DNA from: Candidatus Saccharimonadota bacterium
GTDB taxonomy: Bacteria > Patescibacteriota > Gracilibacteria > UBA1369 > 2-02-FULL-48-14
Reading direction: 5' to 3'
DNA: 32,000 nucleotides
Assembly (NCBI GenBank): GCA_041661045.1
Contig: JBAZVE010000001.1
Coordinates: 210,001-242,000, forward strand
In this document: piece by piece, positions 7,616 to 26,564 of the stretch
Layout of the letters: every line of letters starts with the position of its first letter
How positions within the stretch are numbered: position 1 is the stretch's first letter
Notes under the pieces: generated by a model
Database searches by the model: none
The model's input: the letters and a program-made list of their open reading frames with translations, nothing else
Told to the model about the DNA's origin: nothing
Made by a program: the position numbers and the translations under genes

Positions 7616-7639
7616 AAGCCCACTTATTTAGCCTTTTCT

Positions 7640-9415
7640 ATGAATCAAGAAGAACTCTCTCATATGCGGCACTCTTTGGCCCACCTTTTGGCCGCGGCCG
7701 TTATGGAATTGTGGCCGGACACCAAACGCACCATTGGGCCCGCCATCGACAATGGGTTTTACTTTGATTTTGAATTCAGCCAGCCCATTACTCCTGAAGA
7801 CTTGCCAAAGATCGAGAAGAAAATGCGACAAATTTTGCCCACTTGGACCTCGTTTGAGCGACATGAACTCAGCCCGGAAGACGCTAAAAAGGAATATCCG
7901 GGGAACGAGTTTAAGCACGAACTGATTGATGAATTTTCGGGTGAAGGGCAGTCGTTGTCGTTCTACAAATCGGGGGACTACTGGGATCTTTGCCGAGGAG
8001 GACATGTGGAAAACATGAAAGCGGATATCGACCCCAAATCTTTCAAACTGCACAAAATTGCGGGCGCTTACTGGCGTGGAAGCGAAAAGAATCCTCAGCT
8101 CACTCGTATTTACGGGCTTGCCTTTGAAACGGAGCAAGAGCTGGCCGACTACCTCGCAATGATGGCGGAGGCAGAAAAACGCGACCACCGAAAACTTGGG
8201 AAGGAGCTTGAGATTTTTATGCTGAGTGAAGAGGTTGGCGCCGGACTTCCGCTCTGGCTGCCCAACGGAGCGATTATTGTGGAAGAACTCGAAAAACTGG
8301 CGAAGCAGGTGGAGTTTGATGGCGGATACAGCCGTGTGCGCACCCCCCACATCACCAAGGGCACGCTCTACCACAAATCCGGGCACTTGCCTTACTATGC
8401 GGAGACCATGTTCCCGCCGATGGTGATGGACAATGAAGAATATTATTTGAAGCCGATGAACTGCCCGCACCACCATCTTATTTATGGCAACAAGACGCGC
8501 TCGTACCGGGATCTCCCCATTCGTCTTGCCGAGTATGGACACTGCTACCGTTATGAAGACAGCGGGGCTCTGTTTGGACTGATGCGTGTGCGATCCTTGT
8601 GCATGAACGATGCGCACATCTACTGCCGCCCGGATCAATTTGAAAGCGAATTCATTAAAGTGATGGAGCTCTACAAAAATTACTCCAAAATTTTCGGCAT
8701 CAAAAAAATGGTGATGCGTCTTTCTTTGCATGATAAAGAAGGTCTTGGAAAGAAATATGTGAATGAGCCGGAACTGTGGATCCAAACGGAGGAACAGGTA
8801 CGCCAAGCCATGCTTAAAACAGGTATCGAATTTGTGGAAGCTCCCGGCGAGGCTGCGTTCTACGGGCCCAAGATTGATGTGGAGGTGTGGTCTGCGATTG
8901 GTCGCGAATTCACGCTCGCCACAAACCAACTGGATTTTGCCGTGCCCAAGCGCTTTGACCTGACTTATGTGGACAGCGATGGACAAGAAAAAACACCGCT
9001 TTGTGTCCACCGCGCTCCTTTGGGAACGCACGAACGCTTCGTTGGATTTTTGATTGAACATTTTGCGGGAGCTTTTCCCACTTGGCTCTCACCCGTACAG
9101 GCTATTGTGCTTCCGGTTTCCGATAAATTTTTGGACTACGCGAAGGAAGTGGAAGCGGCCCTTAAGGCTGCGAATGTGCGCGCCGAAACCGATGACAGTG
9201 CCGAGAGTTTGGGTAAAAAGATCCGAGGTGCCGAGAAGCGAAAAATTCCTTGGCTTTTGGTGGTTGGCGAAGCCGAAGTGGCTGCCCGCACCGTGGCGGC
9301 GCGAAGCACTCACACTAAAAAACAAGAAAACTTTGCCTTGGACACTTTCGTAAAACAGATCGCCCACGAAATCGCGGACCGCGCACTCCCTCCCGAACCG
9401 GAAGAGGCCGCTTAG
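7640..9415 (+). CDS. thrS: Threonine--tRNA ligase (ThrRS), lacking the N-terminal TGS domain
   Basis: 591 aa. It starts directly in the editing/SAD region (HSLAHLLAAAV). It has the catalytic zinc-site region YLKPMNCPHHH, class II motifs (FRDLPIRLAEYGHCYRYE; GLMRVRSLCMNDAHIY; HRAPLGTHERF) and an anticodon-binding domain (KIPWLLVVGEAE). An in-frame TAG at 7610-7612 rules out an N-terminal extension. Confidence 0.97.
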   Translation: MNQEELSHMRHSLAHLLAAAVMELWPDTKRTIGPAIDNGFYFDFEFSQPITPEDLPKIEKKMRQILPTWTSFERHELSPEDAKKEYPGNEFKHELIDEFSGEGQSLSFYKSGDYWDLCRGGHVENMKADIDPKSFKLHKIAGAYWRGSEKNPQLTRIYGLAFETEQELADYLAMMAEAEKRDHRKLGKELEIFMLSEEVGAGLPLWLPNGAIIVEELEKLAKQVEFDGGYSRVRTPHITKGTLYHKSGHLPYYAETMFPPMVMDNEEYYLKPMNCPHHHLIYGNKTRSYRDLPIRLAEYGHCYRYEDSGALFGLMRVRSLCMNDAHIYCRPDQFESEFIKVMELYKNYSKIFGIKKMVMRLSLHDKEGLGKKYVNEPELWIQTEEQVRQAMLKTGIEFVEAPGEAAFYGPKIDVEVWSAIGREFTLATNQLDFAVPKRFDLTYVDSDGQEKTPLCVHRAPLGTHERFVGFLIEHFAGAFPTWLSPVQAIVLPVSDKFLDYAKEVEAALKAANVRAETDDSAESLGKKIRGAEKRKIPWLLVVGEAEVAARTVAARSTHTKKQENFALDTFVKQIAHEIADRALPPEPEEAA

Positions 9416-12400
9416 TGGTGACCACCACCACTTTCTCCACCGCCGCCCCCTTCTGCAGGTTTCTTATGTGGCCTGTTGTCCACATCCACTCCCTGCGCGC
9501 GTTCGAGTGCGGAGGCGCGAACATGATCGGCCTCGTGCTCGGCATCGTGAAGCGCCTTGGTGTAGTCCGCGAATACGGCTCCCTTAGCTTTGGCTTTTGC
9601 CTGGGCTTTGGCAATGTTTTCGCGGTGGTCTTGTTGGAGTTTTGCCACCATGGCTCCCAAATTATCTTCCTTGGTTTGGTTCACCGCATACTCCAAATAA
9701 GGAGCTATTCTTTTGTATAAATCATCAATGCCCTTTGGTGGATCTCCATTCCAAATTCCATACTGGCTTTCCAAGGCATTTATAATTGCCTTCGCATCGT
9801 CATCGGTCCGAATTTCATCATTGACCATTTTTTTGATCAAGGGATAGCTGGAATCGAAATCCAACATAGTCAAATAATCCGCTACTCCCTTCACAATGGC
9901 TCCGGTTCCTTTTTCCTCCCGGGCAAATACCTTGCTGTAAATTCCGCTTGTTCGTGGCGGCTTTGCGGCATCCGAGGGTTCCAGACGGAACATTTCTGCC
10001 CCCTTGTAAGCCCTTCTGTTCAAGACTCCTTCGTAGGTTAAGAACTGAGACGCAAAACGAACCATCTCCAGTTTATTTTGTTTTGGCTCCCTCCCTGCGT
10101 AAAGCTCCCCGTACATGTCGAGCCAAAATTCATTTCCCGTGGCCAAACTCATCAAACCGGTCTTAGGCATACCGTAACCTCCCTGGGTCTTTTGAGTGAG
10201 CATATCTTTCACTCGTTCTATGCCGAGGTAACCCGCGAGCATCGGCGCGTCATCGTGATCCACACGGTGGGATCCTTGAGACAAGGTCTTTTCAAACCGT
10301 TCTTGAACCGTGGTGTTGTACATCACGGATTTGTGCATGTAGTAGTCCCATGTCGTTTCGTTTTTTGCATAGGCCGCCGCTTCCTTAATGTCATCGATGG
10401 TGGGTCTATCTCCACGGCCAACCCCCGAATCAAACCAGTCGAAAGGTGGGTAGGTGTTGTTGGTATCAGTGGTGTTCACTCCACGGTCGAAAGGCAAAAG
10501 GCCACTGGAGATACCCAAAACCAGGAATCTCATACGAGCCTCCCCTTTCATCTTTCCTTGAGCCACTGCATAACGGATGATGGACTCAAATTTAATGGGG
10601 TCCGCGGTGGAAAAGTGCTTACCGGCATGGTGGTCGGCCTCATACTGGTCCAGGATCCGTTGAGCCTCATTCACCAAGGCCCCGGGTTCGGCGGCGATGC
10701 CTCCCCAGTTTTTCTCGTACTCTTTCATTTTGCTCTCGTACGAAGAAGCATTGGTGTTTTTGAGCGACTTGAAGGCTTCAGAATCCCTGTAAATATAGAT
10801 ATAGGCCTGACGCATCTTTTCTTCGGAAGAAGTGAGGTTCTTTTGGTGCCAGTATCTGTCTTCCGAAATTTTGACGGTTTTTTGCCAGCGATTGAGCTGT
10901 TTGAAGAGCCAGGGTGCATAAAAATCCACACGCCCTCGTTTGGCCAAAATATTCAAACAGGCTTTGAATTCAAAGCGGTCGATGGTTTCCGCCGCCAAGT
11001 GCATCAAGTGCTCGGTGTTGAAACTGTCGTATCCTTTTTCAATATCCCCCACACGACCGTGTTCCGCGTGCTCCGCCTCTTGCGCTCCATTCGGATGCAA
11101 TTCCGTGAGCGACTTGATCATCTGATTGTTGGTCGGATTTGGAATATGGGTGAGGATTTTTGTGGCATCTCTTTGCCAGTATCCCGCTCCTCGCTTGGCT
11201 TCCGTCTCCACATTTCCCTTCACCGTTTCCGTAACGGAGTGCCAGAAATGTCCCAGCGTTTCGAAGGGGTTGATCATGACGACATCTCGCGTGGGTCGCC
11301 CCGTTCCCTCATTTAGGCTCGTCCTAAAGAGACGCATGTTCTCAAGCGTTTCTGTGAGTTGGACTTCCCCAAAATCCTTGTAACTCATGATCTTTTCTCC
11401 CACTCCCTTCATCCCCTCCAGGAGAGTGCGGGCGACGGCGCGGCGTTCCGCCGTGGACATGGGGGCTTTTTTCAAAAATTCCAATTGCCCTTTGAGTCCC
11501 CGTGGGACAACCATTTCCCCTCCCTTCGGGCCAAAGGTGACCACCCCTCCAATGCTATCAGGCTTATCCGTTTCAATTCCTTCCTCACTAAAGAAAGCAT
11601 CTCTAATGGCGGCCTTGATGTCTTCGTGCTTCTCCAATTCCCCGATCTGTTCCTCCACGGTCTTGAGCTGATCCTCCCACCACTTGCGCTCTTGATCCTT
11701 GGTGCTTTTGATCTTGCGTTCTATTTCTGTTTTTAAACTGGCGGCTTCCGTTTTTACCTGGCCGACGATGGCTTTAAATTTGTCGATCTCTGCATCGTTC
11801 ATGTCCCGTGCTATTTGGCCCTGCAATTTCGTGAACTCCTCTTCCAATTTTGCATCGGTGAGGTCCACAAAGTCTCCGTCTGCATTCACCTCTTTCCCTT
11901 CCCCAAATCTCACGAAATCTTTGTAGGAATCTTCGATGTTGTTCGCCATGTTCCACCACTTATTGGCGTCTTCGAAAAGCACCTTTGCGGGAGACTCTCC
12001 GTTCGGGAATTCCAAACTCCCGTCATCGATGTCTGCAAGGTTTTTCTCCTTGAGCTGTTCCGTGGCCGTGGTGATGTACTCTATCCACGAGTCCCGTACA
12101 TCTTTATAACCATTGGGAGGATTGTCCAGCCACTGTTTTTTGATGTGATTGAGTCGAGCCGTGAGGTTCTCTTTTATTGTGGCATCCATCAACTCTGCTT
12201 GAGCTTTTCTTTCCGCCACAAGTCTGGCGATCATGTCGTCCACTTCTTTTATGGCTTTGCCTCTGTCGAGATTGGCCTCGTTTTTTTCTTCTTCACGAAG
12301 CCTTTGCTTGACACTCTGTTCCATCCCCGGCAACTGCTCTGCAACCTCGAGCAGTGTTTTGTATTTCTGCCTGAGCTTGAAATGGTAGCGATTCTTCTTA

Positions 12401-12768
12401 AAATCCGCTCTATTCCAGTTTTTATCGTTCCCAAGCTCTTTGCGTTCCTTCACCAAATCCTGGAGGGCGTTTTGGGTTCCATTGTAATCGCGCAGCAAGG
12501 CCACCCAGTCGGCGTGAATTTCCCACCGTTTATCGGGGTCGTAGGGCATTTCCCCCGGAAGGATAGTCCTTAATTTTTTTGAAATAGTCCCTTCGGTTTC
12601 TTCACCGGACTCTGTGGGCTCACCCGGACCTTTTGGAGTGGCAAAGCACAACAGTTCTCTTCCGAGGAATGGATTTTTTTTGTACGGAACCGAGTTGTGT
12701 AGGCTACAGATTCTCATGGGGGTGGGGTGATGCTGCCCTCTCGTGGGCGAGAGGAGGGAGTAGCTCAA
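9412..12768 (-). CDS. Large soluble hypothetical protein (up to 1118 aa), K/E/D-rich, C-terminal Gly/His tail; last gene of the orphan operon
   Basis: Uninterrupted 3.36-kb ORF. I see no TM segment and recognise no catalytic motif. The N-terminal third has long charged helical stretches and the C-terminus is ...KKPAEGGGGGESGGGHH. The track start at 12768 is a TTG, and the first ATG is 12717 (MRICSLHN...), so the start is uncertain. The stop overlaps the thrS stop (cTTAGt). Confidence 0.8.
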   Translation of the reverse strand: MSYSLLSPTRGQHHPTPMRICSLHNSVPYKKNPFLGRELLCFATPKGPGEPTESGEETEGTISKKLRTILPGEMPYDPDKRWEIHADWVALLRDYNGTQNALQDLVKERKELGNDKNWNRADFKKNRYHFKLRQKYKTLLEVAEQLPGMEQSVKQRLREEEKNEANLDRGKAIKEVDDMIARLVAERKAQAELMDATIKENLTARLNHIKKQWLDNPPNGYKDVRDSWIEYITTATEQLKEKNLADIDDGSLEFPNGESPAKVLFEDANKWWNMANNIEDSYKDFVRFGEGKEVNADGDFVDLTDAKLEEEFTKLQGQIARDMNDAEIDKFKAIVGQVKTEAASLKTEIERKIKSTKDQERKWWEDQLKTVEEQIGELEKHEDIKAAIRDAFFSEEGIETDKPDSIGGVVTFGPKGGEMVVPRGLKGQLEFLKKAPMSTAERRAVARTLLEGMKGVGEKIMSYKDFGEVQLTETLENMRLFRTSLNEGTGRPTRDVVMINPFETLGHFWHSVTETVKGNVETEAKRGAGYWQRDATKILTHIPNPTNNQMIKSLTELHPNGAQEAEHAEHGRVGDIEKGYDSFNTEHLMHLAAETIDRFEFKACLNILAKRGRVDFYAPWLFKQLNRWQKTVKISEDRYWHQKNLTSSEEKMRQAYIYIYRDSEAFKSLKNTNASSYESKMKEYEKNWGGIAAEPGALVNEAQRILDQYEADHHAGKHFSTADPIKFESIIRYAVAQGKMKGEARMRFLVLGISSGLLPFDRGVNTTDTNNTYPPFDWFDSGVGRGDRPTIDDIKEAAAYAKNETTWDYYMHKSVMYNTTVQERFEKTLSQGSHRVDHDDAPMLAGYLGIERVKDMLTQKTQGGYGMPKTGLMSLATGNEFWLDMYGELYAGREPKQNKLEMVRFASQFLTYEGVLNRRAYKGAEMFRLEPSDAAKPPRTSGIYSKVFAREEKGTGAIVKGVADYLTMLDFDSSYPLIKKMVNDEIRTDDDAKAIINALESQYGIWNGDPPKGIDDLYKRIAPYLEYAVNQTKEDNLGAMVAKLQQDHRENIAKAQAKAKAKGAVFADYTKALHDAEHEADHVRASALERAQGVDVDNRPHKKPAEGGGGGESGGGHH

Positions 12769-12791
12769 CTTCTTGAGCGGACTCTCCCCTC

Positions 12792-12834
12792 ACAATCACC
12801 GTCCATGGTTTTCCGACCGTAGGAGGGTGATTGT
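12792..12834 (-). repeat. Intercistronic hairpin between the 752-aa and 1118-aa genes
   Basis: acaatcacc (12792-12800) pairs with ggtgattgt (12826-12834): 9-bp stem, 25-nt loop. A second small hairpin, cctctcg-tggg-cgagagg (12737-12754), lies between TTG 12768 and ATG 12717. Confidence 0.4.
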
Positions 12835-12871
12835 AGCATCTGTTTTTATTTTTGTAAAGTTAGGTGTTTAT

Positions 12872-15130
12872 TTATAGTCTTATAGCGTTGAGTTGCCTTT
12901 GCATTTCTTCCAATTGAGTGACGGCTGTGTTCACCCGCGCAAGCAGGGCTGCATTGGCTGCGACTGCCGGGTCTCTTCGCAAATCTATGGCATTGGTCAC
13001 AGCTGTGTTCACTGCGTTTCTTGCTGTGGTTAAGCTTTGATTGTCCTGATTGGTTTGAAGGGTTGTTGTTGCGTTTCTTGCCGCAGTTACATTTCCATTC
13101 AGAGTGGTTACGGCTGCATTTCCCGGAAGCGCAGCAACCAGTGCGGCCACTTCTGTGCTCAATGACGCGGTGGTGGGTACAATAAGGTTCACTACCGCAG
13201 GAATGGCGGCGGCCCCTTGTGCAGCGCCCGCTTGGCTCTGTTGTCCGGGAGCGTTGGTGCGGTTCAATCCCACTGTGCTGCCGTCCAGCCTATTCAAAAT
13301 GGCATCCATGGCGGGTTTGTTTTCGAATCCAAGTTGCTCGGCAGTGAAGCCGCTGTTTTGTAAGAGGTCACGGATTTGAGTCAAATTGAATCCGGCGAGT
13401 GTCCTTGCATCCCCACTCGTGAGGTTACTTTGAAGATTTTGAAGACCTCTATCCATTCTGGTTTTTGCGTTGTTGTCTTTGGAGCTTCTCACGATGTTTC
13501 TGAGTTGGCTCAAAAGATCGTGAGTTTGAGTGTAATCGATATCTTGGCCACTGGTGATGATGGCTCTTGCCGTGTTGTAGCTGGCGGCGGGGTTTGTGTT
13601 TTCCACACGGCCCAGCGGATTCATTGGGATCCCAAAGAAGGTGGCATCTTGGGGTAAATTGTTGAGCTGGTTTGTGAGTAAGATATCGTTGTTCACAAGG
13701 TTCATGGCATTGCTGAGTCCCATTTTAATGGCTCCAGCAGAAACTTTGGTTTCCGCGTCTTCTCCCGCAACAGAGATGGGAACGGTGGGAAGAACGGTGG
13801 GCAGTTTGATGAGGAAGTCTTTGACCTGGCCTCCAAAGCTTTCGATGCCGGAGACGATGCCTTGAGCGTAAGTTTCGTTGGCGGCGGCGAAGACTCCGGT
13901 CCACACAATAACGATGCTGGCGAGGGCGATGATGAGTTGAGGAAGGTCGTTGATGCCGGAGATGAGGAATTCTGTGGAAATCACTTCGTCCACCTTAAAG
14001 CCTCCTCCGTCGAGGGCGGCGTTGCCGGTGAGTCCATCCCAAGCGGCGATCATGATGTAGCCCAAGCTCATGGTGGCTCCAATGATAATGGGGGCAATGA
14101 GGTGTTTGGTGACTTTTCCCACAAAGTCCCCTCCTCCTCCGGCCCATTCTTTGATTTGAGGAACCACATACACAAGCACTGCTAGCGGAGAAAGGGCCAA
14201 GGCGACCCACAGCACCACCAAACGAGTGAGCAGCACAATGCCGAGCACCAAGTATGAAACCGCGAAGACCGCGTACATAACAATGGAGAACATGATGCTG
14301 ATGGTGAGATCCGAGAAATCGGTGATGCCCTCCGGCTTGAGCAAAGAGAGGCTGCTGAGCCCACCCATGTTCACGGCCATCACTAGACCGATATTATTGG
14401 AGTTGAGATTTTGAAAATATTTTGCTTCCAGAACCCCGTCGAGACCGATGTAGTCTCCCGTTTCATCGTCCACGGCACAAAAGAGCTGGGTATGAATGGG
14501 GACATCTCCTATGTCTATGGCCGCGTTCCAGTAATCGGTTGGGGCTCCTGTGGTTTCGTCCACGGCTTTCCAACACACACTTCTTTCGAATTCATCTTTT
14601 ACTGCGCTGAAATCGTAAGGAGTTTCGTCGGAGGCGGCCAGTTCCGGCAGCGCGAATACGGCGGTGGTGGCCACATTGGTGAGATCCAAAACCACCTTTC
14701 CGGCGATGAAGGTGAAGTTGACCAAAACGAGTCCAAGCACAATTTTGGGCAGGGCGGTTTTGAGGGCCAAATCTCCCTCTCCTCCTCCAATTCCAAGCAC
14801 ATTGTAAACGGCCACGGCCAGGAGCACGAGCACAAAGGCAATGTTCACCAGGTCTCGCACGGGGATCCAAATGCCTTTGAGCCTATCTTCCATTCCGGGT
14901 CCCAAAATGAGGTCTGTGTCCATTAAATCTCCAATAATAAGGAGGAAGGGCCAGAGCAGCATGTTGATGAAATTCATTCCTATGGAAACCATTGACGCGA
15001 TGGATTGCTCCACCGTTCGTTGGACTTCACTTGCGTCCATGGCGTTTGTGGCTTGCGCGTGCTCAGGGAGGAGGGAGAATCCCACCACCACCAGAGCCAA
15101 AAGCAAGATTGGTTTTATAAATTTTTTCAT
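12872..15130 (-). CDS. Signal-peptide-bearing polytopic membrane protein (752 aa) with long N/T/A/Q-rich C-terminal domain; function unknown
   Basis: N-terminus MKKFIKPILLLALVVVGFSLLPEHAQA looks like a signal peptide. By eye there are about 7-8 hydrophobic helices between aa 44 and 418. A ~110-aa loop contains two Cys (SVCWKAVDE...QLFCAVDDE). The C-terminal ~330 aa is hydrophilic and ends in repetitive N/T/A-rich helices (NAVNTAVTNAIDL...VNTAVTQLEEMQRQLNAIRL). The start overlaps the upstream stop as ATGA. Confidence 0.85.
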   Translation of the reverse strand: MKKFIKPILLLALVVVGFSLLPEHAQATNAMDASEVQRTVEQSIASMVSIGMNFINMLLWPFLLIIGDLMDTDLILGPGMEDRLKGIWIPVRDLVNIAFVLVLLAVAVYNVLGIGGGEGDLALKTALPKIVLGLVLVNFTFIAGKVVLDLTNVATTAVFALPELAASDETPYDFSAVKDEFERSVCWKAVDETTGAPTDYWNAAIDIGDVPIHTQLFCAVDDETGDYIGLDGVLEAKYFQNLNSNNIGLVMAVNMGGLSSLSLLKPEGITDFSDLTISIMFSIVMYAVFAVSYLVLGIVLLTRLVVLWVALALSPLAVLVYVVPQIKEWAGGGGDFVGKVTKHLIAPIIIGATMSLGYIMIAAWDGLTGNAALDGGGFKVDEVISTEFLISGINDLPQLIIALASIVIVWTGVFAAANETYAQGIVSGIESFGGQVKDFLIKLPTVLPTVPISVAGEDAETKVSAGAIKMGLSNAMNLVNNDILLTNQLNNLPQDATFFGIPMNPLGRVENTNPAASYNTARAIITSGQDIDYTQTHDLLSQLRNIVRSSKDNNAKTRMDRGLQNLQSNLTSGDARTLAGFNLTQIRDLLQNSGFTAEQLGFENKPAMDAILNRLDGSTVGLNRTNAPGQQSQAGAAQGAAAIPAVVNLIVPTTASLSTEVAALVAALPGNAAVTTLNGNVTAARNATTTLQTNQDNQSLTTARNAVNTAVTNAIDLRRDPAVAANAALLARVNTAVTQLEEMQRQLNAIRL

Positions 15131-16401
15131 GAAAAGAGGGTGAGATGGGTGACAAAGGCGCTTGATCCGGCAAGACCGGCGAAGGCCGCTCCCGTGATTC
15201 CGGCAGCGAGGCCGGCACCTTTGGCAATGGATTTCTGATCGGCGGTCCAGCGGTCTTTTTTGGCTTGCTCGGCTTTTTGAGTTTTTTTCTTTTGAAATTG
15301 CTCGGCCGCTTGGAGTATGGCGAATTGTTTGTACCTCTCCAGTTCTCGCTCTTGCGCTTTTTTTCGTTCCTCGTTTTGTCGGGCAAAATGCGCGGCGGCG
15401 GCAGCTTGAGTCACCGTGGCGGAGGCTTGTACCCCTTGAGGGGCGCTGGCTTTTGCATGGGTGAGGGCCGCCGCTTCTTTCGCTTGTTCTTCTTGAGACA
15501 AGGCCTCCAACTGAGACAAGGTGTCTAAGATGCCAAGAGCGCCGATGGCCACTGCCGCTTCTTTGGCGGCCTGGGCTTTGGAGGGATCCTCTCCTTCCAC
15601 AGAAGAGATTTTTTGCATCTCTGTGAATTCGGGTTTTGCTTCTCCATATTTCTCGGGGAGCTGAGTCTCCGGGATGCGCTCGCTTCGCTCGCGCCCACCT
15701 TTGTTGATCTGCTCATACACCAAGGGCAGAGCGGGATCTTGATCTACCTCCACTTCCACCGAGAATCGGGAACTGTCGTCTTCCAAGGCCGTTCCATTTC
15801 GGGCGACCTCTATATGCACCACTCCCTTTTCTATCGTGGCATTTTCCACTCGCCACAGCTGTTTCTCGGATTGATTTTGTACACTGAAACTTTCTTTCAA
15901 AACTTTTACGCTGTGCAAAAGGGTTTGCCCCTCGATCACTTCACTGAGCTTCATGCTGGAGCTTACGAGGGTTGGGGACAGGATGGTGGTGTGCAAAGGA
16001 GAAGCCTCTCTGGCCTCTTTTAGGGTGAGGAAGTGGTCGAACTTGGGCCCTCCGCTTCGCTCCGGGCCCTCGTCGCTACTCACCAAAAGCAGCTGTCCTC
16101 GTCGTGCCAGATTTTTTAATTGTTCCTTTTTCTCCTCGGTTTCAGGGCTTTGTTCCACCAAGTCGAGCAGTTTTTGCTCCACTTCCAGGGCCAAATCTTC
16201 GCTGATCCGCTCGGTTGCTTCTTCCGAAGTCCACAGAGCATTCTGGTTTTCCTCCTGCGATCGTCTCAAACGGTCGGCATAGACCGGGTCAAAACTTATG
16301 TTTTTCCCTTGGGCCGCGAGGTCCATTTGCTGGGCGAACTGTTTTTGTGAATCGAGATAGAGCATATAGAGTTGTTGCCGCTTACGCCGGCTTATATTCA
16401 A
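15127..16401 (-). CDS. Hypothetical charged/coiled-coil protein (424 aa) with C-terminal Gly/Ala-rich hydrophobic tail anchor
   Basis: Long ORF rich in E/K/Q, ending in KGAGLAAGITGAAFAGLAGSSAFVTHLTLFS (a single C-terminal hydrophobic segment). The track start at 16401 is a TTG overlapping the upstream gene by 20 nt. The alternative ATG at 16365 leaves a 16-nt gap. Confidence 0.75.
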   Translation of the reverse strand: MNISRRKRQQLYMLYLDSQKQFAQQMDLAAQGKNISFDPVYADRLRRSQEENQNALWTSEEATERISEDLALEVEQKLLDLVEQSPETEEKKEQLKNLARRGQLLLVSSDEGPERSGGPKFDHFLTLKEAREASPLHTTILSPTLVSSSMKLSEVIEGQTLLHSVKVLKESFSVQNQSEKQLWRVENATIEKGVVHIEVARNGTALEDDSSRFSVEVEVDQDPALPLVYEQINKGGRERSERIPETQLPEKYGEAKPEFTEMQKISSVEGEDPSKAQAAKEAAVAIGALGILDTLSQLEALSQEEQAKEAAALTHAKASAPQGVQASATVTQAAAAAHFARQNEERKKAQERELERYKQFAILQAAEQFQKKKTQKAEQAKKDRWTADQKSIAKGAGLAAGITGAAFAGLAGSSAFVTHLTLFS

Positions 16402-17977
16402 AAAATTCCAACGGAGTGAAGTTCAGCGCATTGAGGCCCTCTTCCTTCCGGAGGTCTTGGATGACCCCCCTCTGGAGATCGGGATTATCGGGCATTCGTC
16501 CGGCATTTTCACCTGCAGTTGAAGAAAAGTGCATGGCCCAATCTGCCATTTTTTCTTCCAAAAACTCTTGTTTCCCCCACAAATCTCTAAACTCGGGGGG
16601 GAGATCTTCTCGAGTTTTAATGCCGATGTCTGCAAAAGAAATGGGCACCCTTTTCTCCAAAGAAGCGGCCTTTTTGGCTTTGTAAACCTGCATGATCCGT
16701 TCTGCAAAGGTGCCGTAGAAGTGCATTTCACGGTAGTAGTGCGTGAGTTCTTTCTTAAAATCATCATCATAAGCACTGAGTCTGTCGTCTTTTGCCTCGT
16801 TTTTATCTCGAACCACTCGGGCAGCCATTTGTTCCGGTGTGGACACCATTCCTCCAAATCCTCCTGATGCCTGAAGTCCCACGCCCATCTCGGCGATACC
16901 GAGCCAGATCATGGGATTCAGCGGAATATTTGCAGGATCCGTGACATTCATGGCCACATTCATCCCCACGGTCATGGCTCCGTTTACGGTGAGCAAGGCG
17001 GACCCAATCCCCTTGAGGGTCAGGAGGGAGCGCGCATGATTTTTGTGCCCGTAACTGCTGTTTTCGTAGTGAGCGGCGGCGCGAATGGTTCTTTGTTTCG
17101 CTTGGTCTTCCTTGAAGGCTCCCATCTGTCGGCTGCTCACTTGGCTGAGTGCCGCCTCGAGGACTTCTCTGTCTTTTTTGTTCTTGGTGACGGCCAATTT
17201 CTCGTTCAAAACCGCTGCGGCTTGTACCGCACTGAGGAAGTCAGCCCCCACCATGGTGATGATCTGCTGTTCAAAATGTGGAAAATTCTTTTCCTGTGCC
17301 ATTTTTCTGGCCAGAGTCAGGTGATATTTTTTAGGAAGGGCGGCCATAACCAGCGACACATCGTTGTTTTCTCCCGGTTTGGCGTTTGCTTTCATGCTGC
17401 GGATTCTATCCAGGAGTAGTTTGAAGTCACCCTCTTCCGGTTCCTCCCCCTTGGACAGTCTTGTGAGCAAAGGCATGAGGTCGGGGGCAAAGCCTCGGCC
17501 CAATGCTTCGAGATAAGACTCCTTCATCTCCGGCGGAAGGGCTTGATACACCAGTTGTTGCACATCGATTCCCTCCACCATGCTCATGAGTTTTCCGAGC
17601 TGGGCCAATTCCACTGGTGTGGAAACCATTTTCTCTCCGGGATTCACGGCGGATTGGTGGACATCCGCCAGTTCCAGCATCAAGTAAGCTCGTTGTTGAA
17701 TAAAGTCCAGTACTTTTTTTTGCGTGTTGATTAAATCCAGCTTGTCTAAGCCAAGAATCTCGCCTCTCTGCCCCGAGTGGATGCTTTGAATTTCGTCGGT
17801 GAGCTGGCTGGTTTTTGATCCCAATACCGCCTTGATGCGGTTCTCCGCAGCCATGGCATATTCTTTGGATTTACGGGTAGACCATGCCATTTTCTCGTTC
17901 ACGGTTTGATCCAAGGCTTTTACAGCCTCTTTTTCGTTTTCTTTCAGTTCACCGGTGATGTTTTCTTTTCCTGGCAT
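16382..17977 (-). CDS. Hypothetical protein (531 aa), hydrophilic with one central hydrophobic helical hairpin
   Basis: ATG start 3 nt after the upstream stop. The protein is mostly charged and helical by composition. One hydrophobic region, aa ~317-378 (SLLTLKGIGSALLTVNGAMTVGMNVAMNV-TDPANIPLNP-MIWLGIAEMGVGLQASGGFGGMV), stands out. No family motif recognised. Confidence 0.8.
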   Translation of the reverse strand: MPGKENITGELKENEKEAVKALDQTVNEKMAWSTRKSKEYAMAAENRIKAVLGSKTSQLTDEIQSIHSGQRGEILGLDKLDLINTQKKVLDFIQQRAYLMLELADVHQSAVNPGEKMVSTPVELAQLGKLMSMVEGIDVQQLVYQALPPEMKESYLEALGRGFAPDLMPLLTRLSKGEEPEEGDFKLLLDRIRSMKANAKPGENNDVSLVMAALPKKYHLTLARKMAQEKNFPHFEQQIITMVGADFLSAVQAAAVLNEKLAVTKNKKDREVLEAALSQVSSRQMGAFKEDQAKQRTIRAAAHYENSSYGHKNHARSLLTLKGIGSALLTVNGAMTVGMNVAMNVTDPANIPLNPMIWLGIAEMGVGLQASGGFGGMVSTPEQMAARVVRDKNEAKDDRLSAYDDDFKKELTHYYREMHFYGTFAERIMQVYKAKKAASLEKRVPISFADIGIKTREDLPPEFRDLWGKQEFLEEKMADWAMHFSSTAGENAGRMPDNPDLQRGVIQDLRKEEGLNALNFTPLEFFEYKPA

Positions 17978-17980
17978 GGT

Positions 17981-18505
17981 TTAGTTGAGACGAAGAATAC
18001 GAACGATGGCATCCAAAAGTGAAAGCTCTTTGCTCTCCTGTTCTTGAACCTGAGTGGCCAGAAATTGGCGCACCAAGCTGGGGTTTACTCCCATGAGGGG
18101 GATCACCACTTCCGGTCGGGATTTTTTCTTGGTCATCAGGTGCAGTTCATCGGTGTGGGGAGGGTTGTGGAGCACCGCAAAACCCTTCAGAGCGCTGTAA
18201 GGCATGCGAAGCACTCCAAATTTTACCCCGTAAGGTGAGAGGATAACCTCCACAGCTTTTGGTTTTTTTCGGTGTTCCAAGATCAGAACCAGAGGCAGAA
18301 CCACAAAAACCACCATCATGCTGATGGAATGAGTCCAGTAACCGTACGCCACCAGGCTTGCACTGATGAGAATCAACAGGGTAAACCAGAGCCATCCTCG
18401 CGCATAGCGCACAAATTCCGGAGCCATCCACCCCAAAACCACTTCATCGAAGGCTTCTGGAGCAATAGGTTCATCGGACGGATTTTTATCCTTTTCGGTT
18501 GCCAT
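17981..18505 (-). CDS. Small membrane protein (174 aa): two TM helices plus a beta-rich C-terminal domain (bacterial PH/YdbS-like by resemblance)
   Basis: TM1 is WLWFTLLILISASLVAYGYW and TM2 is SISMMVVFVVLPLVLILEH. These are followed by VILSPYGVKFGVLRMPYSALKGFAVLHNPP..ELHLMTKK..PEVVIPLMGVNPSLVRQFL. That architecture resembles 2-TM bPH-domain proteins, but the family call is low confidence. It is the first gene of the orphan operon. Confidence 0.75.
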   Translation of the reverse strand: MATEKDKNPSDEPIAPEAFDEVVLGWMAPEFVRYARGWLWFTLLILISASLVAYGYWTHSISMMVVFVVLPLVLILEHRKKPKAVEVILSPYGVKFGVLRMPYSALKGFAVLHNPPHTDELHLMTKKKSRPEVVIPLMGVNPSLVRQFLATQVQEQESKELSLLDAIVRILRLN

Positions 18506-18534
18506 ACGCGATTTGTTTTTATTTTTATCTAATT

Positions 18535-18563
18535 ATCTTAGCACAAAATCAGGTTTTTTACAA
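18535..18563 (-). promoter_or_regulatory. Possible promoter of the orphan operon (TTGTAA-17-TAAGAT), overlapping a weak rpsR-distal hairpin
   Basis: On the minus strand: -35 TTGTAA (18563-18558), 17-nt spacer, -10 TAAGAT (18540-18535), 29 nt upstream of ATG 18505. The same region can fold as CAGGTT-gtaaaa-AACCTG (18567-18550) followed by ATTTTGTG, a weak terminator-like element after rpsR. The two readings are not mutually exclusive. Confidence 0.35.
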
Positions 18564-18594
18564 CCTGCTGTGCCTGGAAGACCGTTTTGTGACT

Positions 18595-23645: not shown

Positions 23646-24275
23646 ATGACCACAGATCACCTCCCCGAACCAATAGTCCCCTTAGAGGGACCCCTGCTCG
23701 TCGTTGAAAATATGTTCTACTCAAGTTTAAGGATTAGCGCTGGCGTTCCTAAGGAGATCTTCTACCCTGCCAGAGCTGCTTTTAGACAAGCACTGGAAGG
23801 AATGAGTGCCACAGATCCTGATCTTCAAGAACTCGCCAGGCGTTTTGAAGCCCATGCAGGGACAGAACAAGCCAACTCCAGGACTCAAGCTGCATTTTTA
23901 GAGCTTGCAAGGAATGTCCGTGCCTTGGCTCAAATGGGCTCCATTACTGAGCCTATATCTCGGGAAAGCCATGACATTGAGGAGCTCACCCGTGCAGAGA
24001 ATGCTCGTATTTCTTGGCAAACCAAGTTTTTGTTATCCACTTTGCTTGCCGATATTCACCCCACGATAGACCTCTCACCTGATCAGTGTCGAGAAGTGAG
24101 ACGAGCTATCATTGCGGTTTTACAAGGACTCATTGTAAATACTGGGGCGTGTGAGAAATATGTTGATCGCGAGGCATTAGCGCATCAACTGGACGGTGCT
24201 GCTTTCTCGACTACCGATCCAAAGGCAGCGTCCACTCTATATGAAGTGAGTCGCGCCCTCCACAATGCTCGATAA
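23646..24275 (+). CDS. Hypothetical protein (209 aa), probably all-helical, no recognised motif
   Basis: ATG-initiated ORF 51 nt after the helicase stop on the same strand. No TM or signal peptide seen, and no competing ORF. Confidence 0.65.
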   Translation: MTTDHLPEPIVPLEGPLLVVENMFYSSLRISAGVPKEIFYPARAAFRQALEGMSATDPDLQELARRFEAHAGTEQANSRTQAAFLELARNVRALAQMGSITEPISRESHDIEELTRAENARISWQTKFLLSTLLADIHPTIDLSPDQCREVRRAIIAVLQGLIVNTGACEKYVDREALAHQLDGAAFSTTDPKAASTLYEVSRALHNAR

Positions 24276-24329
24276 AAATTTAAACATTGTGGATTGAAGG
24301 CGTTCGCGCCGGGATGCGGGCACTGCTTT

Positions 24330-25196
24330 TTAGTCCCGGGGTTTTGTCGGAGGAAGATCCTGATCCAAGCTAAACACCTTCCTCAGCAAATACTCCGTGC
24401 CTTCCGGGCCTTTGAGGTGGCGGCCTTTTGGGTCGAGGACCGGGAAGGGGTGGTTGGATTTGGTCAGTTTGCCCACGGAAAAGGGCACGCCATAGTTGCC
24501 GGAGAGGAGTTCTTCGTCGTTGCCGCCGGGCTGGGCTTGGTCGCCGACCACCAAGATGTCTTGCACGGCGATGCCGAGGTGTTTGGCCCACTTTTCAATG
24601 GCTTTACCTTTGCCACTGGCGGCGGGGATGATGAGGTTGCCGATGCCGGAATCTTCCACCATAAAGTGTTTGTCGTGGCCCATTTTTTTGAAGAGGGTTC
24701 GGATTTGATTGCCGGTGCGGTGGGACACGATGCTCACGAGGCGCGGAAAGACATAAAGCCAATCGTGAAAGCGCACCACCAAGGAGTGGGGGCGAAGCAC
24801 AAACTGCACATGCCAGCCGAATTTATCGCGGATGAAGGCCTCCATTGTCTCTTGCGTGAGCTCTTGGTCCGGCCAGGGCACTTCAAAAACCATCTCATAA
24901 TCTTTTTTGCGCGCGTTGTAGCGGTACAGCACTCCCCCATTTTCACAGATCAAAAACCAACGGCGTTTTTGCGCTTCGTCCAAAAATTGTCCGTCTAAAA
25001 TGTGCTCGAGCTTGGTGCGGGCGTAATCAAAAGAGCGGCCGCTGCAGATGGCGAGCGGAATGTTTATGGGGATGGAGCGCAGCGCTTCTTTGAGAGAGTC
25101 CGGCACAATCCATCGGGCAAAAGGCGTGAGCGTTCCGTCCACATCAAAGGCGGCGGCTTTGTACGAGTGTTTGAGTGCGGCGGCGAGAGACTTCAT
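24330..25196 (-). CDS. HAD-superfamily (type IIB, Cof/sucrose-phosphatase-like) phosphatase
   Basis: Motif I AAFDVDGTLT, motif II AICSGRS, motif III Lys region ASGKGKAIEKW, motif IV VVGDQAQPGGNDEEL. I prefer ATG 25196 (MKSLAAALKHSYKAAAFDVDGT) because the longer track start at 25289 would run through the strong divergent promoter at 25261-25290. Confidence 0.85.
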   Translation of the reverse strand: MKSLAAALKHSYKAAAFDVDGTLTPFARWIVPDSLKEALRSIPINIPLAICSGRSFDYARTKLEHILDGQFLDEAQKRRWFLICENGGVLYRYNARKKDYEMVFEVPWPDQELTQETMEAFIRDKFGWHVQFVLRPHSLVVRFHDWLYVFPRLVSIVSHRTGNQIRTLFKKMGHDKHFMVEDSGIGNLIIPAASGKGKAIEKWAKHLGIAVQDILVVGDQAQPGGNDEELLSGNYGVPFSVGKLTKSNHPFPVLDPKGRHLKGPEGTEYLLRKVFSLDQDLPPTKPRD

Positions 25197-25203
25197 TGCG
25201 GGC

Positions 25204-25232
25204 AGTATGCAGAAGATTTTTGTGGGAGGCAA
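25204..25232 (-). promoter_or_regulatory. Possible promoter giving a leaderless or near-leaderless HAD transcript (TTGCCT-17-CATACT)
   Basis: On the minus strand: -35 TTGCCT (25232-25227), 17-nt spacer, -10-like CATACT (25209-25204). Only 7 nt separate the -10 from ATG 25196. Confidence 0.3.
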
Positions 25233-25260
25233 GCTTGCGGGGCGACTGCGCCGATGACCA

Positions 25261-25290
25261 TTGACAAACTCTGAAGTGCTATCGTACAAT
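25261..25290 (+). promoter_or_regulatory. Near-consensus sigma70-type promoter (TTGACA-18-TACAAT) for the 415/805-aa gene pair
   Basis: Perfect -35 TTGACA (25261-25266), 18-nt spacer, -10 TACAAT (25285-25290), 26 nt upstream of ATG 25317. Confidence 0.5.
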
Positions 25291-25316
25291 CGCTCTCCGT
25301 AATCCTCATTTACTCT

Positions 25317-26564
25317 ATGACTGAAACTCCTACTGCACTCTTAGACATTCCCCGAGACTTGGCTCAACAAGAAGTGCGCGCCCCTTTTAATGCACAGGAG
25401 ATCCTTTTTTACTTGGATCACCTTGAGACCCTTCTTCAAACGCATGCCCCACTCTTTGAATCAAAACTTCCTTCTGCAGAGTGGCAGAGGGGTATAGGAG
25501 TTGTGAGGGCTGCACTACAAGATCAGTTTAAGGATTTGAGTGTGGCTTTACCGAGACCTAATCAGGTAGGAGTGAAACTGTCTGACCTTATTTGTACACC
25601 CATTGATCAGTCTGTGAGAGGTAGCCATGAAGAAGCCTTGGGGCAGTATTTAAGGGACCCTGCTGTTGTCCAAGTGAGGTGGTTCCTGCAACAGTATCTT
25701 GGGCTACGAAGAGGCGTGTTGAACCACTCTGGTTTTGATCAGGGCCTTCCCGTCTTACTAGAAAATTCTGTAGCGACTGTGGATATTAACATGTTGAGGA
25801 ATTCCTTCATGATCCCAAACTCAGGTCCCGCTATGCCCGATTCTACGATTAGCAGGATGCACAAGGTCTTTCCTAGCCTGCAATTATCTGATTTACGACC
25901 GATATTCACTGCTATGGGTCTTCAAGTTTTTGACCTGGTTCGAAGCAATGCTCTCCATGCAAGTGGTGCAGCTCCTGCAGCGCCAGCCCCGGCAACGGAA
26001 GTTCGCGTCGCCCCTAAAGCGATAGAAGCGGTGCCGGTCACCTCCGATTTGGCTCAAGGAGTTCAAGTGATGGGTCTGGGCTTTGAAGGGTCTTTTAATC
26101 GTGCGATAGAGGAACTCAGCTCCTTGGTGACTGGATTGAAAGATCAGCGTGCCCCGTTCGGAACTCTAAAAAATCCTGATGAGGTGGAGGCGCAGAAAGC
26201 TGAGGCTGAACGAGTTATTAGAGAGGCAGAAGCTGCGCTTGCTGCGTTCCAAGAGAGGAAAGCAACAACAATACAATCGCTGAATCAGCTGCTCCTAGAA
26301 ATCGGGCAGAGTGGGACCGGTTTGAATCCTGACGCTGAAAAGGCCTTTGATGAGAAAGAAAAAGGACTGACCGACACTCTTGAGAATGCCAGAAGGACAC
26401 TTGCGACTACAATACAAGAACTGGAGGGGCTCCGCGAACAATTCGAAGCCGCTGCGGCTCTCGACACCAAGATTCAAGATATTGAAGCAAGACTTTCCGG
26501 ACTCAGAGCTCTGTCCGCAGAAGTGTCTCAAATAAGAGTTAAAGCCCTTAGCCTTCTTCCCTAA
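25317..26564 (+). CDS. Hypothetical protein (415 aa) with Ala/Pro linker and C-terminal coiled-coil-like region
   Basis: ATG ORF with no TM and no recognised motif. It has a central ASGAAPAAPAPATE linker. The C-terminal ~130 aa is rich in E/A/L/K with heptad-like spacing (EVEAQKAEAERVIREAEAALAAFQERK...). The stop overlaps the next start (TAATG). Confidence 0.7.
   Translation: MTETPTALLDIPRDLAQQEVRAPFNAQEILFYLDHLETLLQTHAPLFESKLPSAEWQRGIGVVRAALQDQFKDLSVALPRPNQVGVKLSDLICTPIDQSVRGSHEEALGQYLRDPAVVQVRWFLQQYLGLRRGVLNHSGFDQGLPVLLENSVATVDINMLRNSFMIPNSGPAMPDSTISRMHKVFPSLQLSDLRPIFTAMGLQVFDLVRSNALHASGAAPAAPAPATEVRVAPKAIEAVPVTSDLAQGVQVMGLGFEGSFNRAIEELSSLVTGLKDQRAPFGTLKNPDEVEAQKAEAERVIREAEAALAAFQERKATTIQSLNQLLLEIGQSGTGLNPDAEKAFDEKEKGLTDTLENARRTLATTIQELEGLREQFEAAAALDTKIQDIEARLSGLRALSAEVSQIRVKALSLLP

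Follow-up and report, generated by a model that had tools for sequence, protein, structure and literature searches.

The window analysed here is a stretch of 32,000 nucleotides from the metagenome-assembled genome (MAG) contig JBAZVE010000001.1, and carries five consecutive minus-strand genes, designated g1 to g5 (Table 1). All five encoded proteins are orphans without a described family. Our preferred reading, advanced tentatively and at somewhat less than even chances, is that two adjacent transcription units in this block, g1-g4 and g5, encode a cytoplasmic-membrane complex of undescribed protein families that is specific to the Peribacteria and Peregrinibacteria. The five products probably build a membrane complex, the core of which is just faintly similar to VirB6 of type IV secretion systems (T4SS). 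Neither Peribacteria nor Peregrinibacteria have been cultured; their genomes are small, and what is held about their lifestyle comes from genomes alone. The contig, 1.32 Mb in length, is labelled Candidatus Gracilibacteria bacterium at NCBI, and the genome is small, in line with the reduced genome presumed in a preliminary description that had been made from the window's sequence alone.

Conservation, promoters and leader RNA of the gene block

When one genome per GTDB species was scanned by pattern, 45 loci with relatives of g4 emerged, and gene order at these was read from tblastn results and open reading frame (ORF) maps. Almost all of these loci are labelled as Peribacteria, Peregrinibacteria, Gracilibacteria or 'Patescibacteria group' MAGs, and two are labelled otherwise. 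The order rpsF-ssb-(rpsR)-g1-g2-g3-g4-g5, followed by a convergent thrS, is kept in approximately 35 of the 45, so that the synteny proposed as a check in the preliminary description is indeed present in relatives. It persists down to about 30% g4 identity and is also found in the complete Peregrinibacteria chromosome CP064962. Between 33 and 38 positional orthologues were obtained per gene, with order and sizes conserved more than by chance (g1 149-211 aa, g2 459-570 aa, g3 285-622 aa, g4 654-887 aa and g5 926-1405 aa). Where the upstream flank was long enough, g1 stood alongside g4 in 34 of 35 loci, and the start/stop junctions within g1-g4 measure 0-20 nt in nearly every relative. The conserved core consists of g1 and the g4 membrane domain, with fast divergence in g2, g3, g5 and the g4 tail. 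At the most distant loci (L039, L045, L047 and L048) g1 and g4 remain linked via one or two large genes of the g2 layout, although all flanking genes differ. In one subclade (L026-L030, L033 and L037; e.g. L027 3380-5785) an inserted purL gene, with a product of approximately 790 aa and AIRS/FGAR-AT domains, separates ssb/rpsR from g1, and the g1-g5 order is intact. This gene had been considered as an adjacent ATPase until it was identified as PurL.

A profile search of 1.84 billion representatives showed the g4 family to be large: 826 representatives, clustered at 50% identity, reach E<=1e-30, and the number rises to 1845 at E<=1e-10. Those members with a named source that were checked are mostly hypothetical proteins of Candidatus Gracilibacteria/Peregrinibacteria, with one labelled Oceanicoccus sp. 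The g4 membrane domain had no match by tblastn in 72,556 plasmids and 50,697 phages. The cluster is chromosomal, lies among housekeeping genes and appears to be vertically inherited. Since this 9-kb block is fixed in place across most of the sampled order, its conservation suggests a central role.

The preliminary description had presented the block as one five-gene operon appended to rpsF-ssb-rpsR. This did not hold, given two promoters, a terminator after rpsR in relatives and a leader in front of g5. The element proposed upstream of g1 agrees with the consensus at no more than 8/12 positions and is missing from the list given by the promoter scan; it is nevertheless conserved in approximately 19 relatives, where it reads TTG(T/A)(A/G)A-17-TGnTAAAAT and has an A-rich leader behind it. 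Just after rpsR and ahead of this promoter, many relatives also carry a strong GC hairpin with a T-run. In the window itself (18506-18594) there is just a weak 6-bp hairpin, and it overlaps with the g1 promoter's -35 element. Because of the conserved promoter and the hairpin/T-run after rpsR in relatives, g1-g4 can be regarded as an independent unit and not as the tail of the rpsF operon. The promoter of g5 is the best match in the region (10/12). TTTACA with a TACAAT-like or TATACT-like second hexamer occurs in the g4-g5 spacer of 20 related loci, the promoter being conserved in at least 17, and it is present too in five new metagenome instances (L050, L051 and L056-L058). Judging from these signals, the block looks like two transcription units of four genes and one gene.

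Between the conserved g5 promoter and the start codon lies a leader of approximately 112 nt, which ends about 10 nt before the AUG and whose core is near-invariant among genomes with proteins just 40-60% identical. In the fold obtained with RNAalifold a closing helix P1 (GUGAU/AUCAC) encloses a second hairpin and a long purine/pyrimidine helix, the latter capped by a hairpin of variable length. A covariance model found one copy per locus, in the g4-g5 spacer every time, in 26 sources including the five new metagenome contigs; it did not find the leader in the deeper clades L024-L048. A pattern scan of metagenomes for the leader core gave 16 matches, nine by chance in unrelated contexts and seven true, two of these being duplicates. 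In an alignment of 25 distinct sequences that was fitted to the covariance model, bases can pair in 96.5% of cells, and compensatory changes are seen at 12 of the 26 pairs; none of 500 shuffles was as good, and shifted registers gave at most four compensatory pairs. An unfitted alignment of 19 sequences showed five compensatory pairs, with none of 500 shuffles reaching its covariation score. The fold has z = -2.2. Rfam gave no match to the leader when the whole window was searched at gathering thresholds, and two chance-level matches only for 12500-13000 at E<=5.

Like riboswitches and ribosomal-protein leaders, the g5 leader lies between promoter and start, has several helices and shows compensatory changes, and like cis-regulatory leaders in general it is conserved beyond the flanking proteins. 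It differs from known cis-regulatory leaders in having no Rfam family and no evident terminator or sequestration of a Shine-Dalgarno sequence. No canonical Shine-Dalgarno of the GGAGG type precedes the starts at 18505, 17977, 16365, 15130 or 12717, which may be a genome-wide trait. Anti-Shine-Dalgarno mimicry by the 5' end of the leader, AUCACCCUCCU, was dropped as an explanation because g1-g5 all have no canonical Shine-Dalgarno. The leader RNA, which is compact (about 112 nt), covaries and is known in 26 copies, is an independent and directly testable finding.

Predicted proteins and the proposed complex

Searches of g1-g5 against Pfam, NCBIfam, PHROGs and PADLOC returned nothing at threshold (best PHROGs match no lower than E 0.04, none in PADLOC), nor did PDB sequence and profile searches of all five proteins. 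Confident homology to characterised families, named beforehand as a result that would speak against the block's novelty, is thus absent from these databases. The earlier statement that no family signature is recognisable in any of the five is accurate at threshold; below threshold, hints of type IV secretion recur and are weighed further below. Membership of an anti-phage defence system or a mobile element was likewise not indicated by PADLOC (none), PHROGs (nothing below E 0.04) or the plasmid and phage comparison. The Walker A pattern is absent from the five window proteins, as had been stated; the cluster contains no P-loop protein, and at none of the loci does an ATPase gene adjoin it, in agreement with the proposal that the apparatus is without its own ATPase. 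The membrane theme that had been recognised is coherent, four of the five proteins having membrane segments of four different kinds.

The g1 protein, as judged from a 32-sequence alignment, has a short N-terminus with W-x-A-P-E-[YF], two hydrophobic helices at residues 35-79 and a beta-rich C-terminal domain of approximately 95 aa. Hydropathy and the alignment both show the hairpin, in keeping with the earlier picture of two transmembrane (TM) helices and a small beta-rich domain. The K-rich N-terminus and the two helices would place the C-terminal domain in the cytoplasm. Below threshold, 13 of 32 g1 orthologues matched DUF6232 in Pfam (best E 9e-5, 23.3 bits against a cut-off of 27.4), with other matches to DUF3093, DUF5673 and bPH_7; window g1 itself matched none of these in Pfam. 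The DUF6232 matches cover the hairpin or the first strands, in a non-collinear register. They fit a layout of hairpin plus PH-like domain. In its layout, with a small beta-rich domain placed after a two-helix hairpin, g1 is like the bPH, DUF6232, DUF3093 and DUF5673 proteins; unlike members of these families, its orthologues match below the gathering score throughout. To our knowledge none of these families has an established function, and the likeness therefore explains little.

In g2 a hydrophilic N-terminal part, helical by composition, is followed by a Gly-rich hydrophobic hairpin at about residues 318-378, which holds the only near-invariant residue of the protein (N340), and by a C-terminal domain of approximately 150 aa. 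The central hairpin had been predicted; it is seen in the conservation, and a simple hydropathy window did not flag it. Relatives of the g2 layout range from 459 to 1114 aa, the N-terminal part varying from about 300 to about 900 aa with hairpin and C-terminal domain constant. A Pfam scan of 37 members gave scattered singletons and nothing coherent, and the PDB gave none. In g3 a conserved N-terminal region of approximately 230 aa is joined by a low-complexity linker, rich in A/Q/E, to a hydrophobic Gly/Ala-rich C-terminal tail, which is anchor-like, as had been proposed. The g3 orthologues gave scattered singletons only in Pfam, and PDB matches of the tail were set aside as Gly/Ala low-complexity similarity to prion protein only. 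A Walker A pattern occurs in 11 of 39 g3 orthologues, eight of them with AS.D.GKT in a conserved loop at about residues 89-99 (e.g. L009 8763-9917, residue 89). An ATPase role for g3 was rejected, as the window protein has VSSDEGPERSGGPKF at that loop and there is no P-loop context.

The N-terminus of g4 is signal-peptide-like, with a conserved P..A.A site, and the protein has seven hydrophobic helices, all of them long. Residues 148-276 hold an acidic alpha/beta domain of 125 aa in which two Cys (C186 and C218) are invariant, and a variable tail of approximately 330 aa is rich in N/T/A/Q. The preliminary description, which had a signal peptide, about 7-8 TM helices and a 330-aa tail of this composition, is thereby made more precise as to the number of helices, the start being signal-peptide-like and the tail variable. 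Across 85 sequences the membrane domain has five invariant and approximately 60 near-invariant positions. An AlphaFold model of residues 1-470 made with the 85 sequences (pLDDT 80.8, pTM 0.74) has helices that are 30-40 residues long and, inserted, a small alpha/beta part; Foldseek found no match for it in the PDB at E<=0.001. As to the side of the membrane, a cleaved signal peptide, seven spans and the K+R counts would favour a cytoplasmic position for both central domain and tail (mean K+R of the short loops 2.2 and 2.8 'inside' against 0-1.2 'outside'). On the other hand, exactly two Cys are present in the central domain in 33 of 33 sequences and g1-g3 have no Cys at all, and the pair suggests a disulfide outside.

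In g5 a conserved N-terminal peptide (..Y-K-K-N-P-F-L-G-R-E-L..) precedes a K/E/D-rich first third, an all-alpha domain of approximately 500 aa and a His/Gly-rich tail. The all-alpha domain contains an invariant D-H-D motif, plus kept E, R and K residues. An AlphaFold model of residues 340-1000 counted from ATG 12549 (396-1056 of the 1101 aa) has pLDDT 74.9 and is confident and all helical at about 494-994 in the same numbering. The alignment behind it holds 13 sequences, and a repeat homologue search, made with a profile of 33 sequences, yielded these 13 proteins again, so the model rests on a shallow alignment. Foldseek against the PDB found generic alpha-solenoids only (TM<0.25), with none at E<=0.001 and no recognised enzyme fold. 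A hydropathy scan from ATG 12549 on saw no hydrophobic segment, in agreement with the soluble, K/E/D-rich protein described before.

On these grounds a mechanism can be proposed for the preferred membrane complex. The genes g1-g4 would be transcribed from their own conserved promoter and translated in fixed proportion via the 3-nt, 16-nt and ATGA junctions. The polytopic core would be g4, the best-conserved component, which probably oligomerises into a platform or conduit. Hydrophilic cytoplasmic arms, probably largely helical, may be fixed to g4 by g1 (hairpin and PH-like beta domain), g2 (re-entrant hairpin) and g3 (tail anchor). Made separately under the second promoter and the structured leader, g5 would dock on the complex as a regulated partner. 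Without an NTPase of its own the complex would be a passive scaffold or channel, or be powered by a protein encoded elsewhere. By inferred topology the cytoplasm would hold the C-terminal domain of g1, together with g2 as a hairpin protein, g3 as a tail-anchored protein lacking a signal peptide, and g5, in which no hydrophobic segment was seen. Since the greater part of the mass would thus lie in the cytoplasm and the evidence on the side of the g4 domain conflicts, the 'host-interface or envelope apparatus' of the preliminary description, with its surface or host-contact role, is not established.

Gene calls and genomic setting

The G+C content of the window is approximately 0.50 and its ORFs are unbroken under the standard bacterial code. 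The genes g1-g5 bear the locus tags WC777_01015 to WC777_01035, each annotated as 'hypothetical protein'. The five minus-strand ORFs listed in the preliminary description are all present, corrections to the starts of g3 and g5 apart (Table 1). The gap between g1 and g2 reads TAA-ACC-ATG, as described, and the ATGA overlap of g3 and g4 was confirmed at 15130-15127. Two alternatives had been offered for the g2/g3 junction, of which the 16-nt gap (ATG 16365) was retained and the 20-nt overlap via TTG 16401 was not; ATG 16365 is backed by the orthologue N-termini M-[FL]-L-[DT]-x-Q-[NK]-Q-F. For g5, the start at TTG 12768 (1118 aa) was corrected to ATG 12717 from the N-terminus common to its orthologues (M-R-I-C-x-L..S-V-P-Y-K-K-N-P-F-L-G-R-E-L), which begins there in the window, and the NCBI model WC777_01015 likewise has 1101 aa. 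The same shared N-terminus rules out ATG 12549, the start chosen by the Logan gene caller (1045 aa). As g5 starts at ATG 12717, the g4-g5 spacer measures 154 nt, in place of the approximately 100 nt first given, and contains the promoter and the structured leader. At its other end g5 overlaps the convergent thrS tail to tail by 4 nt (9412-9415, where the stops TAA and TAG share bases), and therefore no space is left for a terminator between the two genes.

Table 1. Coordinates of the five genes and their candidate regulatory elements in the window.
Feature	Position	Strand	Description
g1-g4 promoter-like element	18535..18563	-	TTGTAA-17-TAAGAT, upstream TG; A-rich leader to ATG 18505
g1	17981..18505	-	174 aa, WC777_01035; predicted two-helix membrane hairpin and beta-rich C-terminal domain
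g2	16382..17977	-	531 aa, WC777_01030; central Gly-rich hydrophobic hairpin
g3	15127..16365	-	412 aa; Gly/Ala-rich hydrophobic C-terminal tail; NCBI model WC777_01025 has 416 aa
g4	12872..15130	-	752 aa, WC777_01020; signal-peptide-like N-terminus and seven hydrophobic helices
g5 promoter-like element	12830..12858	-	TTTACA-17-TACAAT, upstream TG
g5 leader RNA	12718..12829	-	structured, conserved 5' leader
g5	9412..12717	-	1101 aa, WC777_01015; predicted all-alpha domain of approximately 500 aa

The neighbours are housekeeping genes on both sides: uvrA, prsW, a CitMHS transporter gene, a RecF-like gene and thrS on the one, and rpsR, ssb, rpsF, a TrmB regulator gene, a helicase gene and mutS on the other. 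In a related locus (L020 8-5557) a protein of 1849 aa with SLH, PKD and Big_7 domains is encoded directly upstream of rpsF; these organisms therefore carry S-layer-homology surface proteins near the cluster. Two long antisense ORFs, 7628-9061 (minus strand, 477 aa, opposite thrS) and 10078-11316 (plus strand, 412 aa, opposite g5), are F/R/H/V-rich and look like mechanical ORFs and not genes. Elsewhere in the window, a co-directional plus-strand run at 23646-28981 has no Pfam match and consists of ORFs of 209 aa (23646-24275), 415 aa (25317-26564) and 805 aa (26564-28981); the latter two share an ATGA-type overlap and are rich in A/E/V/P low-complexity sequence.

Alternative readings and comparison with type IV secretion systems

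Several observations weigh against a single complex of five subunits. The genes g2, g3 and g5 evolve fast, and many of their orthologues lie under tblastn detection. Beside g4, g5 is absent in L039, L045 and L048, and the sequence of L047 stops at g4. A g5-like protein of 1533 aa (23% identity) is encoded without g1-g4 at L066 (619-5220 and 6197-8731), where it adjoins a dUTPase gene and a convergent ftsZ-ftsA pair. What looks like a complex of five may therefore have four members, with g5 as a neighbour only; the earlier suggestion that all are subunits of one complex is a reasonable inference for g1-g4, in view of their start/stop coupling and co-conservation. In addition, the evidence on the topology of the g4 central domain and tail conflicts, and no functional clue can be read from the fold of g4 or g5. 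The analysis shows conservation, synteny, junctions, promoters, the structure of the leader, predicted folds and the lack of known families; physical association, subunit roles and any transport function are inferred from these.

The alternative closest to a known system is that the cluster supplies, in extremely diverged form, the inner-membrane platform that is missing from the T4SS of Patescibacteria, with g4 of VirB6/TrbL type, g1 of VirB3/PrgI type, VirB4 encoded elsewhere and g2, g3 and g5 as accessories; we consider it possible but doubtful. VirB6/TrbL was tested directly because the g4 architecture had suggested it before any search. Among 24,736 Pfam models, the most frequent matches of g4 relatives are all T4SS membrane proteins, namely TraA (7/33), TrbL/VirB6 (3/33 at E<1, best E 0.0093) and TrbC/VirB2 (2/33); window g4 had no match to Pfam PF04610 TrbL at E<=1. 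In Foldseek the top-ranked match of the g4 model was an S-layer chain (9gk2_G, prob 0.07), and this aside the four best probabilities belong to TrwI/VirB6 of R388 (7o3v_F, 7o3v_J and 8rtd_L; TM 0.36-0.43 on target) and DotA, with E above 1 in all cases. When the g4 family was compared by hhalign with an alignment of eight VirB6 sequences (R388 and seven other MPF-T plasmids), 80 columns were aligned with a pairwise P=0.025 and a probability of 1.9% (0.1% against R388 TrwI alone). This comparison pairs the most conserved hairpins, g4 R303 ... S314-P315 with VirB6 K ... invariant G180-P181. Three of 32 g1 orthologues matched VirB3 (PF05101) at E<1 across the hairpin (best E 0.0015, 19.2 bits against a cut-off of 23.9), which is below the gathering score. 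The DUF6232/bPH models fit g1 better, and the g1 family gave nothing against TrwM (hhalign probability 0.4%). There was also no similarity of g2 to TrwK/VirB4. Within 10 kb of the cluster, the flanks being the only part searched, no VirB4, VirD4/coupling protein, TrsD, pilin array or hydrolase was recognised in any of the 45 loci. Every signal in favour is thus below threshold, and hydrophobic helices frequently cross-match in searches. Literature on these bacteria is compatible with a diverged platform, as a 2025 survey reported that VirB6 homologues are undetectable in the class Gracilibacteria, 'suggesting extreme sequence divergence', and that VirB3 and TrsD homologues are encoded there away from virB4 (PMC12102498). 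Long C-terminal extensions, such as that of g4, are also described for rickettsial VirB6 paralogues in a further report (PMC7648143). We have not filed the cluster as a T4SS, because none of the comparisons for membership placed it there.

It seems improbable that the cluster is instead a scaffold at the cytoplasmic face for division, morphogenesis or chromosome/membrane organisation, in which g1 and g4 would organise the membrane-anchored helical proteins g2, g3 and g5 in place of divisome or cytoskeletal adaptors lacking in Patescibacteria. Nearly all mass is cytoplasmic by inferred topology, the length variation of the g2 N-terminal part with hairpin and C-terminal domain kept is ruler- or spacer-like, and the cluster, apparently inherited vertically, keeps its place among housekeeping genes in all parts of the sampled order. 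The stand-alone g5-like gene beside ftsZ-ftsA in another lineage would also agree with a scaffold, but this adjacency is one convergent case. No similarity to known divisome or cytoskeletal families was found, and a signal-peptide-bearing seven-helix g4 with an invariant Cys pair would be unexpected for a purely cytoplasmic scaffold. Quite improbable, in our view, is that there is no common machine at all and that five independent lineage-specific genes are adjacent by operon inertia in a small, little-rearranged genome. The flanking rpsF, ssb, thrS and trmB are equally syntenic, there are two promoters, g5 is separable, and purL entered between rpsR and g1 in one subclade with the cluster undisturbed. 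Inertia accounts less readily for the short junctions of g1-g4 in nearly all relatives, for the linkage of g1 and g4 at the most distant loci despite different flanks, and for the membrane anchoring of all four proteins. The preferred reading of a membrane complex can also be put in a stronger form, which we hold with slightly less confidence: that g1-g4 are an undescribed, ATPase-less membrane machine of Peribacteria and Peregrinibacteria only, not related by descent to type IV secretion and made of four new families, with its large cytoplasmic partner g5 controlled by a new class of leader RNA.

Other analogies drawn from architecture (NfeD/flotillin, SpoIIIA, T7SS and PilC/GspF) were dropped for want of a supporting model or fold match. 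If the link to type IV secretion fails, the cluster would define four or five new protein families, which come with confident predicted structures (g4 and g5 domains modelled) that have no known fold relatives. As candidates for the missing VirB6 and VirB3 parts of Gracilibacteria, g4 and g1 can now be named.

Compared with VirB3/PrgI, g1 has the same two-helix membrane hairpin near the N-terminus, but the former are of approximately 100 aa with the hairpin only, whereas g1 adds a conserved beta-rich domain of approximately 95 aa and is followed by no VirB4 gene. In contrast to VirB6, g4 is about twice as large, carries the inserted 125-aa alpha/beta domain with the Cys pair, and is a chromosomal core gene off mobile elements with no VirB4, VirB3, VirB8 or pilin genes beside it. 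It resembles VirB6/TrbL in being a polytopic inner-membrane protein of long helices, and in the helical hairpin that is conserved above all else, where a basic residue is followed by a small residue and Pro. Its variable C-terminal extension also resembles that of the rickettsial VirB6 paralogues (PMC7648143). Unlike the chromosomal T4SS of Patescibacteria, the cluster has no recognised VirB4, TrsD or pilin array, and signals below threshold are the sole link between the two. Like that T4SS, it is a chromosomal, non-conjugative and lineage-wide membrane system of small genomes (PMC12102498).

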